IMG/VR virus record: IMGVR_UViG_3300031994_000010
Location: 96,001 to 160,000 of that record
Strand: one strand, 5' to 3'
Length of the DNA stretch: 64,000 nucleotides
Source of the DNA: a virus
Lineage: Duplodnaviria > Caudoviricetes
Part shown: one piece after another, positions 15,887 to 63,147 of the stretch
How positions within the stretch are numbered: the first letter of the stretch is position 1
Layout of the letters: the number at the start of each line of letters is the position of its first letter
Translations under genes and position numbers: made by a program
Notes under the pieces: generated by a model
Told to the model about the DNA's origin: nothing
Databases searched by the model: none
The model's input: only the letters and a program-made list of their open reading frames with translations

Positions 15887-16777
15887 TTACTCATTTGGTC
15901 TGTGTGACTTAAGTTCAATTCCACGAACCTTACAAACTTCTTCAATTTGTGAAATTCTGGTTTCCCATTGAACTATATGATTTTCAATTTCTTCAATAAA
16001 TCTAAACAGGATTTTATTTCGGAGAAGAACAAGTTGGTCAGTAGTAAGCTCAGAATACTTCTTGGTACGAAGATTTAACATAGCTCGTAATTCTGCATAT
16101 GTTAATCCAGCTTGATTAGTCTTAAGTCTTACCTTATCACTGAGATTATGACGATGCTTAATAGTCACTAATCTATCAATCAGTTGACCCTTACTATCAT
16201 ATTCCTTTAAATCTTCACGCTCTTGTGGAGTAAACCAAATACCCAACTTAGTAATGAAGTTAAGAGACAAGTGAGTACGGTCAAAGATTCCAAGACTATC
16301 CAAACAAGCATCTCTAACTTGTTCAATAGTGATGTCCCTAAATTCTGCAGGAAATTCAGCATCAGATGTTACATTATCAATAGTTACTTCAGAATATTTC
16401 TCTTTTGGAAGAACGTCTAGATTATTATCTAAGAGTTCTTTCAAATCCATATAATACAAATGCCTAGAATACAGAGGTCTTCCGTTTGAATTCAAATACT
16501 TTCCTTCAACATATCTGATAAATAGTTCAACATTACATTTAGCTTGTTGCTCCTTTACCATTTTAAGTAGTACATATCTTCCAGGATTCTTTCTATCTGT
16601 ATTATACAACATAGAAAGACAATGATCGTAAAACTTATTTAATTGCTCTTCAGTAGCATCCATTAACTTTATAGTTGGTTGCATTACTTCTCCAGCAACT
16701 TCACGTTTTGGGCCTTTCCAAATATAACCATCTATACTATTCAAAGCCTCCTGCAATTTTTCTCCAAGTACTCCCAT
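15887..16777 (-). CDS. hypothetical protein
   Basis: 296 aa ORF. Confidence 0.75.
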   Translation of the reverse strand: MGVLGEKLQEALNSIDGYIWKGPKREVAGEVMQPTIKLMDATEEQLNKFYDHCLSMLYNTDRKNPGRYVLLKMVKEQQAKCNVELFIRYVEGKYLNSNGRPLYSRHLYYMDLKELLDNNLDVLPKEKYSEVTIDNVTSDAEFPAEFRDITIEQVRDACLDSLGIFDRTHLSLNFITKLGIWFTPQEREDLKEYDSKGQLIDRLVTIKHRHNLSDKVRLKTNQAGLTYAELRAMLNLRTKKYSELTTDQLVLLRNKILFRFIEEIENHIVQWETRISQIEEVCKVRGIELKSHRPNE

Positions 16778-21487: not shown

Positions 21488-21723
21488 ATAATTACATTCC
21501 ACTATCCTGTTACAAGGAGCGTCTTTACCTCTCACTCTTTAATTATCGACTTGCCTACAGTAACTTCTCCAACTTTTTAAAGGTTGGCGTTTCCTTCCTT
21601 ATATTCGTTTAATAATCTATTTTTTAATTGCCATTTATCTCTTAAATCAGAATCCCAATCAAACCATTCTGTCCATTGGATTCCATCTTTTGTCCAAAAT
21701 TGATAACGTTTCTGTACCATAAG

Positions 21724-22325
21724 TACCCCAAGCAGGACTCGAACCTGCGACCCATTGCTTAGCTTACCACACTATGTTACCATAGCCAAACAATTAAAGG
21801 AACTTTCGTGGAATTTGTATATTTATACTATATGTTCCTCTCACTTCATACATATTACTATGCACCTTCTTCGAGTTGTTTGTTGTAGTCTGGAATACAT
21901 TATTACCCTATCGAAATTCTTGCAAGTAATAACTTTTCCGTTAAAACGAGCTTTATCTGCCCTAGGAATCATTATAATTTCAACTTAGGTATCTCCTCTA
22001 TATTCTCTACACATTTATGATACTTACATATTGATTTTTACACGATAACTCCGAGTTAATTCTCAATTAAGTATGCACATAGGTTTGCAAGCTATCCACA
22101 TACGTTATAGTCAATAAAATATCAATAGTTTTCTCAATTTAGCACGGTATTATCCTTACACATTATTGGTTAGTGTTCTGTCCCTACGGTGCTGCTATAA
22201 CAGATTTCGTGTTGCAGGGTTGAGGAAAGGACTTCCACCGTTTTAGGGAGATTCTAACAAGGACTTTCGTGCCTTGTCACTCCTTTTTTTAAGGCAATTG
22301 CTCTAATCCACTGAGCTATTGGGGC
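21724..22325 (-). tRNA. tRNA-Arg(UCU) split by group I intron
   Basis: 5' exon GCCCCAATAGCTCAGTGGATTAGAGCAATTGCCTT (22325-22291) + 3' exon CTAAGCAATGGGTCGCAGGTTCGAGTCCTGCTTGGGGTA (21762-21724); joined loop CTTCTAA. Confidence 0.85.
21763..22290 (-). ncRNA. group I intron in tRNA-Arg(UCU), 528 nt, inserted after U34
   Basis: exon ends in U, intron ends in G; P1 CUU/GAG; core-like AATACCGTGCTAA and TGTGTAGAGAATATA; terminal TATG-GTAA-CATA hairpin. Confidence 0.8.
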
Positions 22326-48070: not shown

Positions 48071-48087
48071 TTTCTTGTTTTATTTAG

Positions 48088-48659
48088 TAGCGCAGACGGG
48101 ACTCGGACCCGTACGTTCATTACTGAACACTGGATTTTCCTGCCACTCTATGTTACCATAGCCAAATGATTAGCCATCTACTTGGCAATGACCGCCGCAT
48201 CTTTCAGCGACCGTAGAGATTCGCACTCTTCCTATTTTTTCAAGGCAGTGTAATCATCTGTTGTGGTCTGGCACCAAACTAATGTTTGGTGGAGGTTAAA
48301 CCTCACTGTCTCAGTACCATATTGAATTCTTGCGCAAGTTGTGTCTGTTTCAGTGATAGTAGCACATGTAAGTCTACCCATTTGACAGGCCACACAATTC
48401 AACTTAGGTATCTCCCGTTCAGTCTCTACACGATTATGAGAATTACTATGAGGTGTTCTTATGTTATCTCTTGTTCATTCTCATTTTCGCTCGGTGTTGT
48501 CCTTCCACATTATTGATTAGTGAGGTTACATATTTTCTCTCTTACGAAGGCTAACGTCTTTAAGGAGTTTCACCGAATTTAGGAGATTCTACATAGGGAT
48601 TTCTCGCCTATGCACTCAATTTTTAAGTCCAGGGCGTCTACCAATTCCGCCACTGCGCC
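48088..48659 (-). tRNA. tRNA-Leu(UAA) split by group I intron
   Basis: 5' exon GGCGCAGTGGCGGAATTGGTAGACGCCCTGGACTT + 3' exon AAAATCCAG...GTCCGAGTCCCGTCTGCGCTA; joined loop CTTAAAA. Confidence 0.88.
48139..48624 (-). ncRNA. group I intron in tRNA-Leu(UAA), 486 nt, after U34
   Basis: P1 ACUU/GAGU, AAATTCGGTGAAAC, GTGTAGAGACT core, terminal G; same site as cyanobacterial tRNA-Leu introns. Confidence 0.85.
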
Positions 48660-56536: not shown

Positions 56537-57274
56537 ATGGAACAAACAGAAGAAAAAAGGCATGTGCAGTTGCCAAATAATGCAACAAAAAACTCAGAAT
56601 TAACAGCTAAAGATTGGTTGATTTACTTATATATTAAATCCTATAAGAAATCTCCAAATGCAAAGATACATCCATCATTAGAAACACTACATCAGCGTTC
56701 AGGAGCATCAATTAACACTATTAGAAAATGTATTCAGAATTTAGTAGATGCTGGAAAAATAAGAATAGTAAAAAAGGGAAGATCGAATTACTATGAATTT
56801 TTAGATAAATACGATAAATTTGAACCATTTAGTAATGAATTCCTAGATAAGAAGGATTTAACTTTTTTGGAAAAGGCACAATTAGTTGTAAGTCAACAAT
56901 ATTTATTTAAAAATCCAGAAACTGGAGATGGTGTAACAAATTATTCAAATAGACAACTAGCTGAAATCATAAAAATGCCGGAGTCTACAATTAGAAAGAA
57001 TTTAAATAGCCTTATTAATAAAGGATATGTAGAAATTAAAGAAGTAAAAGATGAGTTTACTGGTTTAGTTACAAAACAAAAAATTTATCACCTTACTAAA
57101 CTTGAACAAGCTATTGTCTTTATACTAAAGAATCATGAAGATAGATTAAATGATCAAGAAGATAGATTAACGCAACAAGAACAAGAGTTAAAACAATTAA
57201 AAGAGTTTTTACTTCAGAATCCTGCTCTTAAAGAACAATATAAACAGTTTACAGAGTCTAATATTACTCTTTAA
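56537..57274 (+). CDS. tandem winged-HTH protein, putative replication initiator
   Basis: HPSLETLHQRSGASINTIRKCIQNLVDAG and SNRQLAEIIKMPESTIRKNLNSLINKGY HTHs; C-terminal coiled coil. Confidence 0.7.
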   Translation: MEQTEEKRHVQLPNNATKNSELTAKDWLIYLYIKSYKKSPNAKIHPSLETLHQRSGASINTIRKCIQNLVDAGKIRIVKKGRSNYYEFLDKYDKFEPFSNEFLDKKDLTFLEKAQLVVSQQYLFKNPETGDGVTNYSNRQLAEIIKMPESTIRKNLNSLINKGYVEIKEVKDEFTGLVTKQKIYHLTKLEQAIVFILKNHEDRLNDQEDRLTQQEQELKQLKEFLLQNPALKEQYKQFTESNITL

Positions 57275-57687: not shown

Positions 57688-57755
57688 TATTAGTGGCCGG
57701 TGATGATAACTAATATATATTTTCTAAGCACCTGAAAGGCATCAGGTGCAAATTT

Positions 57756-58029
57756 TGGCCTATGGTGTAACGGTAGTCACAGGGGACTCTTAAAAAAAGG
57801 AGCATTATAAAGAAATTTATAATTGAACAGTTCGCTAATTCGGTGAAACTCTTATAAAGACAACGCCGAGCAAGGTTTTTAAAACTATGTGTAGAGACTT
57901 TATACGAACTACCTAAGTCGTTAAGATATGGTAAAGACAAAGTCCGGACTACAACAATCATAGATTGGTTATGGTAACATAATGTAGTGAAGAAATCCCT
58001 TAGTCTGGGTTCGAATCCTAGTGGGCCAA
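57756..58029 (+). tRNA. amber suppressor tRNA (CUA anticodon, Gln-type body) split by group I intron
   Basis: 5' exon TGGCCTATGGTGTAACGGTAGTCACAGGGGACTCT (57756-57790) + 3' exon AAATCCCTTAGTCTGGGTTCGAATCCTAGTGGGCCAA (57993-58029); joined GGGGA-CTCTAAA-TCCCT; U1-A72. Confidence 0.8.
57791..57992 (+). ncRNA. compact group I intron (202 nt) in suppressor tRNA anticodon
   Basis: P1 CUCU/GGAG with U.G; AATTCGGTGAAAC, AACGCCGAGCAA, GTGTAGAGACT, AAAGTCC; TATG-GTAA-CATA hairpin; terminal G. Confidence 0.82.
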
Positions 58030-58033
58030 CAAA

Positions 58034-58360
58034 ATGGAAACTACTTTTATTTATAATGGTAAAACAATTACCACTCCGAATCTTCAAAAGAAGTTAAAGA
58101 GAATGAAAATTACAGAAGCGGATATAAAAATTATACCTAATCCGACTAAAGAAGAGACTAAATCTGAATTAGATATTCCGTTAGAAAATTATCACGCTTA
58201 TAAATATCCAGACCAATCATTGTGGCATATTTATATAACTGATAATCCTCCAGATACTATAATATGGAATAATCAAGTTTTAGAAAGGGATATTGCCTAT
58301 GAAGAAAATAATCTTCGATTTCTTAAAGATGAACTTAGAGCAAATAGAATTAGCCTATAA
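58034..58360 (+). CDS. hypothetical protein
   Basis: 108 aa ORF right after the tRNA. Confidence 0.6.
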   Translation: METTFIYNGKTITTPNLQKKLKRMKITEADIKIIPNPTKEETKSELDIPLENYHAYKYPDQSLWHIYITDNPPDTIIWNNQVLERDIAYEENNLRFLKDELRANRISL

Positions 58361-58439: not shown

Positions 58440-58473
58440 TAAAAAAAGGTCGGAGACTGTCCGACCTTTATTT
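58440..58473. terminator. bidirectional terminator between convergent units
   Basis: AAAGGTCGGA/TCCGACCTTT with A- and T-runs either side. Confidence 0.7.
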
Positions 58474-58475
58474 GT

Positions 58476-58934
58476 TTATCTACTAAAATAACACCATATC
58501 TTAGATTCTCCATAAGGATTATCTTCATCGTTAATCCAATTAACTGCTAACTATACCATCTTTTGTTCTAACATCTTATCACTATCTTCAGGAAACCACT
58601 CTTTTAGTAATGGTAACATATCACTACAAATCATATTAAGAGTAACTTCAAAGTCCCACTTATTATAAGGATATATCAGTTTCCTTTTATTCTAAGAGTA
58701 TAAAGATGTAACATCGTCCCAGTATGGCCCATAATGTTTCCGTCCATTCTCTTCGTAATACATTTTAGAAATCTATTCTTTAGCAAATTCTTCATCGAAA
58801 TGTTTACCTTGAGTACTTTCATAAACTTTCTTAGCAAGTTTAGTAAGTTCTTCTTTAGGTACATATTCTTCCATTGCTTCAGAAAGTATTTCCATATTAC
58901 CGCCATACTTCTTTACAATATTTTTAATGTCCAT
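58476..58934 (-). CDS. code-15 hypothetical protein, 152 aa
   Basis: MDIKNIVKKY...HFDEEFAKE[TAG]...YNKWDFEVTLNM...NDED...KIWCY. Confidence 0.75.
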
Positions 58935-59403
58935 TGTTTACAGCTTTTAAAATTTGAGAAAGAGTTGACTCGATTCCACCAATAGATTGTTCGATTCGGA
59001 CAAATCTTTCTTCAGTCTACTACTGCTATTTATAAACTACATCTAGTTCAGCTACTAAACCTTTAGCAACTTCTAATCGTTTCTAACAATTATCTACTCC
59101 ATCTATATAAGTCTAACATTCACTCTCTATAGATTTAAGAATAGAAACTAAAGGAACTTTATCAGTAGCTATTATTATATTAGAATCAGACTACATTTCT
59201 GCAGTCTACTAATCTGCAGGTAATGTCCATATCTTAATTTGTCCTTCGGATTCAATTGAAACATCGACTAACATTGGCTGACCAAACACTGTATTCATTC
59301 TTGGTGGAGTAGCATCCTAAACTACTTTACCCTACTAATAAGATAAATTCTCTTTATTAAGAATGTATACAGGGAATCCTTTTTTCAACTCTTTAAAATT
59401 CAT
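58924..59403 (-). CDS. code-15 coiled-coil protein, 159 aa
   Basis: MNFKELKKGFPVYILNK...; only TAG interruptions; ATGA overlap upstream. Confidence 0.75.
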
Positions 59404-60302
59404 GAATTAGTACTCGACTAAGTTTCTTTAGTTAAAGTTACTGCATATCCAGGAACATAAGCCTGAGGATATGTAGGCAACTAATGAGCAGCAATAGCAT
59501 TAACTTGAGCCTATATTGGGGCAACAGCAGCGGCTATAGCAGCTGTATCAGCGGCTTGAATCTCTAAAACATTAAGTCTATCACGAAGAGCATTCTTTTC
59601 TTCAAGTAAGTCAGCATATCTACCTTGTTCCCAAGCGTTTCTAAATGCATCAATAGATGCGCGAGTCAGAGTATTCTCTGCTCTCATTCCAGTGAGTAAG
59701 TCTTGTGTCTAATTAATTGTACGAATCTAATTCTCGTAACCCTAATTAGTAATAGCACTATTTAAAGTGTTAGTCTACTGAACAGTCTATAACTAGTTCT
59801 AGAAACCAGACTACTGAACTTCAGTTCTTAAAGTGCAGCAACAATCTTTTAAACTTTGAATTATATTCAAGTTACCAGAAGCAACTGCATTTTGTACACC
59901 AACAATACTCAGACCTGTTTGAGCAGCGGTTTGAGCTATACCCATATTTACAGAATTAATAGCTTGAACTATTGCATTATAATCAACATTTAAATTCTAA
60001 GCTAATTGAGACTGTGCAAATTGATTACCCTACAGAGCACTCAGTATAGAATCAGTACTTTGGTTCTAAGAGATTTGATTAGCTAAAGCATTTAATTTAG
60101 CATCTACATCGGTTGCTACGACTGCTCCAGCTACTCCACCTCCACCATTTCCGAATCTGTTACCGAACCCACCATTCTAAAAAATGGAAAGCAAGATTAA
60201 ATAAGCCCAAGGGTTATTAAACATAGAGTTCTACTGCATAGCCAGCATACTTGCAGTATCCATTCCTCCAGTAGGAATAGTAATTACTTTATCTTCATTC
60301 AT
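59400..60302 (-). CDS. code-15 Gly/Asn/Gln-rich coiled-coil protein with DCCC motif, 300 aa
   Basis: MNEDKVITIP...NNPWAYLI...GGFGNRFGNGG...DCCC; >12 TAG, no internal TAA/TGA. Confidence 0.8.
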
Positions 60303-61560: not shown

Positions 61561-61728
61561 TTAATTAGTTTGTATTGCTTGTATTCTATTTTTATAATTA
61601 CTCAAAACAGATGCCGCTTTATAAGCACTAACTGACCCTGCTGGTACATAGATAGTAACAGCATTTTTCCAAGAGTTATCATCTGGAGTCTATAAAAATG
61701 GTGATATACTATTAAATTTATTATTCAT
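61561..61728 (-). CDS. 55 aa LRR C-cap remnant (code 15)
   Basis: MNNKFNSISPFL[TAG]TPDD...TIYVPAGSVSAYKAAS...RIQAI. Confidence 0.55.
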
Positions 61729-62917
61729 TCTTTATTTTATTTATTACTATTCCAGTAACAACTGGAACTTTTATCTGTGATAATTTAAAATTCTAAACCC
61801 ACTATGGAATCTATGACTTAGGAAGTTCAGCTAATCCTGTAGCGTAATCTTCCATATATCCGTTTGTCTTCACTGTATTAAAAAGATTAACCACCTAGTC
61901 GTCAGTTAAACTATTTATATAAGTATTTAATTCTTCATAAGTGGGCTAATGTCCTAACTAATCTGCTAAATATTTTCTAATCTCTGCGTTAGTAGCTCCC
62001 ATTTCTGATACTAACTTTGAATCCGCATGAGCTACTCTTCTAGGTAATAAATATGTGTCTTTAAGTAATTTACTTTGTGCTCTACTATAAGGAACTAACT
62101 ATTGATAACCGTGAGTTCCTTCATGTAAAGCAGTACTAGCAGCATCTGGTGACCAAATATCATTAAGATAGTTTCCAGAACTAGTATGGACTCCCTAAAT
62201 ATCTTCAGCTATAGGTCTATAATTTAAAGCTTCCATTTCTGCTTTAGGCATAGCCTACATATTGCTATAAGTAGTAACCGAAGGAGACTTAACTGCTTCC
62301 TATGCTTTTAAAGCTCTATTATAAGAACGTCTCGCAGTTATTCTCTATCTCCAAGGTAACTAAATTACTGCTGTAGGTTGACTTGTTCTTCCAGTAGTTA
62401 TCATCTAAGTTACTGGTTTCTAAGCAGATTGTGGTAGCCAAGACAGTTCTCTTAATACATTCTACTATATTAAATAGTTATCTGGAATCTATAAAGTTTC
62501 TGGATTATATATAAGGTTATCAGTTTGAAACTAAGCTAAAGCATCATCAGATACTTTTGTATCTACAGTATAAGCTTTACCGTCAATTCCTTTGGTAGTT
62601 CTTACTTTGTATCTTGTTTTAGCTAAAGGACGTACTACCTTAGCTAAAGGAGATAAAGCAGCTCCTTCTACTATAAATGTTCCAACTGGATCTGCTCCAG
62701 AAAGTCCTATTATTCTAGGACTAAAACTATACTAATCTTTCTTTCCCTACAACTTTTCTCTAACGGTTGTTTTCTTTCTTAATGTTGGTTTCATTTCAGA
62801 ATGAGGAAGAGTTCGGGCTTGCTATTGTTTTCTTTTCTAATATTGCTAAGCCTAAACTCCTTCTCTTCTATATTTACTACCTTGAATAGTATCTCCGTTC
62901 TATAAACGAAGTATCAT
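61721..62917 (-). CDS. code-15 zincin-like (HEGTH) protein, 398 aa
   Basis: ATG 62917 overlaps upstream TGA; about 25 TAG and no TAA/TGA until 61721; ALHEGTH...EMGATNAEIR. Confidence 0.8.
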
Positions 62918-63147
62918 AATAACAAGGCAAGAACTGCTAAGGCACAACCAATCAATCCGAAGACTGCTACTTTATCATTTACTGGATTACCAAGCATTTG
63001 ATTATTAACAATCTCTTTGGCTATAACAAAAATGGCACCAAAGATTACAGCAAACCAAATGTCAGCTAATCCAAAGTAACCAAGTAATGTCATCCCTACT
63101 CCAAACAAAAATCCTACAAAGGAATTATTCATTAAATTATTCCACAT
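62914..63147 (-). CDS. small multi-TM protein (holin-like topology)
   Basis: three hydrophobic segments in 77 aa. Confidence 0.5.
   Translation of the reverse strand: MWNNLMNNSFVGFLFGVGMTLLGYFGLADIWFAVIFGAIFVIAKEIVNNQMLGNPVNDKVAVFGLIGCALAVLALLL

Follow-up and report, generated by a model that had tools for sequence, protein, structure and literature searches.

A Phage Amber Suppressor tRNA Gene Probably Split Within Its Anticodon by a Small Group I Intron

Results

Organization of the Locus

The phage genome is a single contig of 174,440 bp (CheckV 96% complete), and the window, i.e., the whole 64,000-nt stretch of DNA analyzed here, comprises its positions 96001-160000. At 57756-58029 (+) of the window lies a 274-nt gene in which two tRNA halves flank a 202-nt insert. 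This gene belongs to a plus-strand unit with the order DnaD-like gene, small ORF, hairpin, tRNA, 108-aa ORF, and bidirectional terminator:

56537-57274 (+), gene for a wHTH DnaD-like, replication-initiation-like protein, upstream and co-oriented (Pfam HTH_36 and DnaD_N; PHROG 186; no TAG)
57729-57749 (+), GC-rich hairpin GCACCUGA...UCAGGUGC with AAAUUUU after it, immediately 5' of the tRNA (read from the sequence)
57756-57790 (+), tRNA exon 1: acceptor 5' strand, D arm, anticodon stem 5' strand, and loop residues C32, U33, C34, and U35; 3' end ...GGGGACUCU
57782-57786 (+), anticodon stem 5' strand, GGGGA
57791-57992 (+), group I intron of 202 nt without an ORF; starts UAAAAAAAGGAGC, ends ...GUAGUGAAG
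57993-58029 (+), tRNA exon 2: 5' end AAAUCCCU; A36, A37, and A38, anticodon stem 3' strand, variable loop, T arm, and acceptor 3' strand
57996-58000 (+), anticodon stem 3' strand, UCCCU
58034-58360 (+), 108-aa ORF, downstream and co-oriented, no TAG; a homologous ORF follows the tRNA in the related contigs G001 and G002, and downstream similarity extends to intron-less contigs
58445-58469 (unstranded), bidirectional terminator-like hairpin (terminator scan) that closes the plus-strand unit against TAG-rich minus-strand genes

The hairpin at 57729-57749, which may serve in processing or attenuation, failed the terminator scan and is read through in one RNA-library contig. A search for related loci with the DnaD-like neighbor returned one distant locus (L005). 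No riboswitch or other sensor RNA adjoining the intron was found in an Rfam search of the locus (600 nt). The position of the gene fits expression alongside non-recoded genes, and says nothing on the rate of splicing.

Joining the exons at CUCU|AAA produces a clean 72-nt cloverleaf with the loop CUCUAAA, the anticodon CUA, U33, and the purine A37. The insert is located between U35 and A36, such that the anticodon itself is divided (CU|A). For the ligated exons, ARAGORN returns a tRNA of 73 nt whose anticodon is cta and whose anticodon stem has 6 bp, and the product has the canonical form of a suppressor cloverleaf, i.e., a 7-nt loop (C-U-CUA-A-A) on a stem of 5 to 6 bp. The discriminator A is at 58029 and CCA is not encoded in the gene. 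Compared with the homologs in Lak-B1, G001, and G002 described below, the acceptor, anticodon, and T stems all carry compensatory changes.

The original prediction, made from the sequence alone, had described two tRNA halves around a 202-nt element with group I features, and both the sequence and the core strings that it quoted are present at this locus. It had also called the tRNA body Gln-like; this is true of U1-A72, A73, and the UAACGGU D loop, which are common to the ligated tRNA and the phage's own tRNA-Gln(UUG), but not of the overall identity, which at 41/72 is below that to tRNA-Cys. Default ARAGORN and the Rfam tRNA model both fail to detect the split gene, as it had anticipated for a plain tRNA scan. 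The intron-aware mode that it proposed as a check (ARAGORN -i) does find the gene, but places the intron wrongly and calls it tRNA-Lys(ctt) i(37,201), a model whose intron is 201 nt long and whose anticodon stem contains an A.A mismatch. This mode misplaces the intron in relatives too, giving Ser(cga) in Lak-B1 and His(atg) in G001 and G002. Elsewhere in the window, at 48087-48659 (-), its call of a tRNA-Phe(aaa) containing an intron of 491 nt is dubious and likely spurious.

Split Genes in Related Phages

We located the same split gene in the Prevotella megaphages Lak-B1, B3, B6, and B9 by blastn and in two IMG/VR contigs of 159 and 180 kb (G001 and G002, respectively) by pattern scans; earlier exon patterns in such scans had matched the Lak copies only. 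Both G001 and G002 are TAG-recoded, with ORF coverage rising from about 0.5 to 0.88 when TAG is read as sense. No intron-less CUA tRNA was found in the present phage (G000), G001, or G002, and no other CUA tRNA was found in Lak-B1 in the regions around 33 Rfam tRNA matches. The helicase of the present phage gave weak tblastn matches only, including one to a crAss-like record, and another protein of the window gave none; the phage is tentatively assigned to the zeta crAss-like group on the strength of its genome size, its recoding, and the sizes of the related contigs.

A scan of IMG/VR with the core motif of the intron matched more than 119 loci; among the 80 loci listed, most are in tRNA genes with group I introns, including those for Leu(UAA), Asn, Thr, Pro, and others. 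The scan also recovered additional split CUA genes whose tRNA bodies differ (L118, L122, and L128/L132). Within the window, the tRNA-Arg(UCU) gene at 21723-22325 (-) is split between U34 and C35 by a related intron of 528 nt, which starts AAAAAAAGGAG, contains GUGUAGAGAAUA...AUUCCAGACUACAA, and ends ...GGCUAUGGUAACAUAGUGUGGUAAG. Outside the window, a sub-threshold Intron_gpI match at 16472-16622 (+) of the genome (38.8 bits, E 1.5e-9) probably represents a group I intron that interrupts a protein-coding gene.

Structure and Covariation of the Intron

The predicted elements of the intron are as follows:

57787-57802 (+), P1: exon CUCU plus intron U (57787-57791) paired with the internal guide AGGAG (57798-57802)
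57804-57823 (+), P2: 8-bp hairpin with a GAAA tetraloop cap; the stem differs in each homolog and the GNRA cap is kept
57829-57834 (+), P3 5' strand, AGUUCG, pairing with 57905-57910
57840-57869 (+), P4 (57840-45/57864-69), J4/5 AAA, and P5 (57850-53/57857-60), from Rfam alignment and folding
57870-57890 (+), P6, from Rfam alignment and folding
57896-57900 (+), P7 5' strand, GACUU inside the GUGUAGAGACU element, pairing with 57940-57944 and giving the P3/P7 pseudoknot
57905-57910 (+), P3 3' strand, CGAACU
57911-57932 (+), P8 hairpin with outer ACC/GGU
57940-57944 (+), P7 3' strand, AAGUC within the conserved element AGUCCRGACUACAA
57948-57988 (+), P9 domain: outer CUAC(A)/(U)GUAG, P9a hairpin (57955-57967), and P9b hairpin with a GUAA loop (57968-57983)

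Rfam Intron_gpI matches 57779-57963 with 42.2 bits (E 2e-9 in a 600-nt search; E 1.4e-10 genome-wide). The Infernal search suggested in the original prediction was hence positive by E-value, but its score lies below the Rfam gathering score of 50. The intron of the closest homolog (L118) scores 58.2 bits, above that threshold. Lak-type introns gave no Intron_gpI match at E 0.01 and the 528-nt tRNA-Arg(UCU) intron gave no Rfam match at E 0.1. We read these missing matches as bias of the model since covariation supports the fold; the available text of Williams (2020; bioRxiv 10.1101/2020.01.27.920355) states that the seeds of Intron_gpI include no bacterial sequence.

Covariation was assessed across seven distinct split CUA genes (window, L118, Lak-B1, G001, G002, L122, and L128), with helices extracted sequence by sequence because MAFFT misaligned L118 in P2-P6. 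In P3, 6/6 positions have undergone compensatory change, and pairing holds in 41 of 42 cells across the homologs. All cells of P7 are paired (35/35), and its last pair is U-A in the window and A-U in the six homologs, i.e., one compensatory pair. In P8, the outer bases differ between sequences but remain paired (AUC/GAU, CAUCU/AGAUG, AUCC/GGAU, and GCC/GGU). Compensatory changes also occur at 3/3 positions in P9a and 5/5 in P9b. In the Lak-type relatives, a P4 pair N-N' covaries (AU, CG, and GC) and so do P5, P6, and P6a, as judged by RNAalifold for P4-P6. P1 does not covary, because the anticodon loop fixes its exon strand: CUCU/GGAG with the U.G is invariant in 7/7 homologs, the wobble pair at the 5' splice site being U57790.G57799 in the window. 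The omega-G is G57992, just before exon 2 (AAAUC), and all homologs have a G at the same place.

When the precursor is folded without constraints, its MFE structure contains the acceptor, anticodon, and T stems together with P1, P2, P4/P5, P6, P8, P9a, and P9b; the folding z-score is a modest -1.7. No evident P10 pairing was found in the window intron. The compact P1-P9 architecture has GNRA loops on L2 (GAAA) and L9b (GUAA), and its core motif is common to phage tRNA-Leu(UAA) introns. Altogether, the comparative sequence evidence identifies the insert as a group I intron with a covarying P3-P8 core that includes the P3/P7 pseudoknot. It may be IC3-like, a tentative assignment that follows Williams (2020).

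Intron-Less Alleles and the Splice Junction

Brute-force enumeration of splice sites with ARAGORN was ambiguous, and we used intron-less alleles for the junction instead. Metagenome contigs were scanned with a degenerate pattern of the predicted ligated sequence. Intron-less tRNA(CUA) genes of the same tRNA family are carried by 84 contigs, many of 150-225 kb, and 79 of the 79 scorable genes are cta. One of them (L234) equals the ligated exons of the window save for one extra D-loop T, and two others (L241 and L260) are identical at 72/72 positions to the ligated exons of the sister phage G001. Several intron-less contigs align with G001 at 93-98% identity on both flanks with a gap of the size of an intron; in L241, the missing stretch of ~220 nt matches the intron of G001.

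The intron-less alleles read ...GACTCTAAATC..., and T57791 thus belongs to the intron. No boundaries other than CUCU|U...G|AAA yield the intron-less sequence, by which the junction is settled at the DNA level. A CUA anticodon that arises only on joining the halves at CUCU|AAA, as originally proposed, is borne out both by the cta call on the ligated exons and by the identical loop of these alleles.

The Lak-B phages are divided at this locus. An intron-less suppressor with the loop CUCUAAA occurs in five genomes (Lak-B2/B4/B5/B7/B8) at the locus that holds the split gene in four (B1/B3/B6/B9), and the split and intron-less suppressors differ in tRNA body while having the same loop. The comparison suggests a cassette-like replacement at the Lak-B suppressor locus. 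Between Lak-B1 (L001, 412033-412353) and Lak-B2 (L047:1115-1187), flanks about 99% identical enclose two different tRNA(CUA) genes.

Recoding of TAG and the Search for Another Decoder

ORFs of at least 100 aa cover 0.53 of the genome under code 11 vs 0.91 with TAG as sense, which agrees with the many TAG-interrupted genes reported in the original prediction, and the longest ORF extends from 757 to 3577 aa. A standard-code block is located at about 70-110 kb of the genome. An alignment was made of 11 full-length homologs with a 551-aa protein whose gene has 13 TAG codons. The TAG columns contain Q in 37/137 homolog cells vs a background of 5%, and one column is invariant Q. Since these columns align with Q above background, TAG is read as Gln in this phage, which extends to it the TAG-to-Gln recoding that the original prediction had cited from crAss-like phages.

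Two minus-strand genes beside the tRNA unit are extremely TAG-dense, with ~5-6% of codons being TAG: 59400-60302 (-) has 16 TAG in 300 codons and 61721-62947 (-) has 25 in 408. A family match was obtained for the former only (PHROG 16490), and none for the latter.

ARAGORN and Infernal identified 14 ordinary tRNAs in the whole genome. Neither program found a CUA tRNA besides the split gene in the 174,440 bp, including an intron-less copy; the statement that this is the only CUA tRNA, originally made for the window, hence holds for the full genome. No release factor and no GlnRS domain are encoded in the genome. The split gene is the sole recognizable code-changing component of the genome.

The ligated tRNA contains U1-A72, G2-C71, G3-C70, and U35, which we take to be GlnRS identity elements. 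These, together with the alignment of TAG with Q, suggest that tRNA(CUA) is most likely charged with glutamine by the host GlnRS.

RNA-Library Contigs

We also inspected assembled contigs of four RNA-library runs. One sheep-gut RNA-library contig spans 57596-57996, i.e., the leader, exon 1, and the whole intron, and ends 4 nt past the omega-G. No contig joining the exons was found among the assembled contigs of the four runs, which is uninformative either way; only the unspliced form is represented and carry-over of DNA is possible. The 26-nt tail of the spanning contig is the reverse complement of 58634-58609 of the window, joined to the plus strand at 57996. A 17-nt near-repeat, 57965-57981 / 58604-58620, contains the palindrome AUGGUAACAU, and the tail is probably a chimera at this near-repeat.

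Discussion

An amber suppressor tRNA(CUA) gene split inside its anticodon by a small group I intron is, with high confidence, the best overall explanation of this locus. According to this model, the primary transcript would decode nothing while the intron is present. P1, with its U.G wobble at the site of cleavage, would form between the loop CUCU and the guide GGAG, and behind it the P3-P9 core would fold. The intron, which is predicted to be self-splicing, would then excise itself using a guanosine cofactor while the tRNA's own anticodon stem keeps the exons together, and ligation would create the loop CUCUAAA. In-frame TAG codons, which are very numerous in the late and structural genes, could then be read by the mature tRNA.

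The intron resembles the IC3 introns found in anticodon loops of bacterial and plastid tRNAs in being a small ORF-less ribozyme with a U.G wobble at U-1 in P1, a terminal omega-G, the core strings AAUUCGGUGAAAC, GUGUAGAGACU, and AGUCC, and GNRA tetraloops on L2 and L9. In the available text of Williams (2020; bioRxiv 10.1101/2020.01.27.920355), the hosts of these introns are tRNA-Leu(UAA) ("Leu.3Ug"), tRNA-fMet, tRNA-Ile(CAU), and tRNA-Arg(CCU), and a total of 21 tRNA settings are given, four classical and 17 new; that text covers bacterial genomes only. In contrast, the host gene here is the amber suppressor tRNA of a stop-codon-recoded phage, and the insertion site falls between residues 35 and 36 (position 4 of the loop as Williams numbers it).

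With the intron-less suppressor tRNA(CUA) genes of zeta crAss-like and Lak phages (PMC7886860; PMC6784885; bioRxiv 10.1101/2021.08.26.457843), the present gene shares its tRNA family, the loop CUCUAAA, and the role in TAG-to-Gln reading; it differs from them in being split and invisible to tRNAscan-type searches and default ARAGORN. Introns within tRNA genes of TAG-recoded phages have been described in Lak megaphages, where they were termed "enigmatic," were not classed as group I, and were reported in Tyr, Phe, Gly, and Thr tRNAs and in no suppressor (Devoto et al., 2019, PMC6784885; jumbo phages, PMC13037316). Table S2 of Devoto et al. (2019; PMC6784885), as far as it was available, gives Sup CTA coordinates within the Lak-B2, B4, and B5 loci that are intron-less here and has no Sup CTA entry at the position of the split gene in B1/B3/B6/B9. 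We take this to mean that the split CUA gene of the Lak-B phages went unrecognized in that study.

The original prediction went further and proposed a ribozyme-gated switch of the genetic code. One part of it stands: TAG reading would depend on splicing of the tRNA, because no other component of the genome can decode TAG. The other part, that slow or regulated splicing (through guanosine nucleotide, Mg2+, or a phage factor) times the translation of TAG-containing late and lysis genes, we consider unlikely, and a timer has low odds overall. Translation of TAG-rich genes must indeed await the spliced tRNA in a genome that encodes neither a second CUA tRNA nor a release factor or GlnRS, and the gene sits in a TAG-free unit beside a replication-initiator-like gene; moreover, split CUA genes recur in several recoded phage lineages, and a single split UCA (opal) tRNA was observed as well. 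Set against this, near-identical phages (93-98% identity on the flanks) manage without the intron, either allele serves among the Lak-B sisters, introns of this family are frequent in phage tRNAs other than suppressors, and no sensor RNA adjoins the intron. In vitro, group I introns in tRNAs, such as those of Anabaena and Azoarcus, need only seconds to minutes to splice, a rate too high to be of use as a timer unless splicing is inhibited. Splicing as a gate on expression has a known precedent in the group I intron of Clostridioides difficile controlled by a c-di-GMP riboswitch, an allosteric ribozyme; that intron has an adjacent ligand-sensing aptamer, whereas the Rfam search of the locus found no sensor beside the phage intron.

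The intron is instead best interpreted as a selfish element, mobile or inherited, that is tolerated in a code-changing tRNA, not as a device that evolved as a timer. This reading follows from its presence or absence among near-identical phages and from the occurrence of the same intron family in ordinary phage tRNAs, including the tRNA-Arg(UCU) of this genome. Splicing is presumably not regulatory. It is improbable that rate-limiting or regulated splicing delays or tunes the TAG=Gln switch, late translation, and lysis in intron-plus compared to intron-minus sisters.

It is very improbable that the gene is dead, i.e., that the intron inactivated the tRNA, that no splicing occurs, and that TAG is read by a host tRNA or another mechanism. 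Splicing is a prediction and the window intron scores under the Rfam gathering threshold, which would suit such a reading, yet divergent lineages have kept both the exons and the ribozyme core, with compensatory changes, and a relative's contig has 2 differences in the 274-nt gene vs about 20 in ~870 nt of flanks. Furthermore, three recoded genomes would otherwise encode no suppressor. A different spliced product, either the 8-nt loop CUCUUAAA (a possible four-base decoder) from a cut one nucleotide later, against which the original prediction had cautioned, or the tRNA-Lys(CUU) called by ARAGORN, has a negligible probability: although ARAGORN -i returns that call and a 3-bp alternative P1 (CUU/GAG) can be drawn, the actual P1 has 5 bp, the tRNA-Lys model requires the A.A mismatch, the intron-less alleles put T57791 in the intron, and the later site does not exist in L118 because the base after CUCU is A there, which refutes the cautioned cut.

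For the split suppressor gene, the novelty is the setting, i.e., an amber suppressor tRNA as host of an already known kind of element, the group I intron. Our literature search, with coverage of sources outside subscription journals, found no paper linking group I introns to suppressor tRNAs. Recoded phage genomes without a detectable suppressor have been noted repeatedly (Yutin et al., 2021, PMC7886860; Borges et al., 2021, bioRxiv 10.1101/2021.08.26.457843; Crisci et al., 2021; a 2025 zeta-crAss paper). Three surveys report many TAG-reassigned genomes without a suppressor and propose "divergent" tRNAs or host factors (PMC7886860; 10.1101/2021.08.26.457843; PMC12386605). A gene that is present but intron-split would explain the missing suppressor in at least three crAss-like genomes of zeta size and in four genomes of Lak-B megaphages. 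Intron-aware tRNA annotation would recover split suppressors and improve the calling of phage genetic codes. The reading of a reassigned codon would be conditional on one ribozyme reaction, and the intron-plus and intron-minus sister phages offer a clean natural system for asking whether splicing ever limits the code switch.

Three minor observations concern the relatives. UUA (ochre-reading) tRNAs were called in G001 at 100452-100533 (-) and in Lak-B1 at 344976-345047 (+), and these relatives have no sign of TAA recoding; UUA tRNAs of Lak phages have already been remarked on in the Lak literature. In a 100-kb phage contig, a Hatchet ribozyme (RF02678, 103.5 bits; L128:11311-11434, +) lies ~8 kb from another split CUA tRNA. 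Lastly, a 134-kb IMG/VR contig (L066:384-819, +) contains a UCA tRNA of the opal suppressor type that is split CUU|CAAA by a 341-nt intron of the same family.
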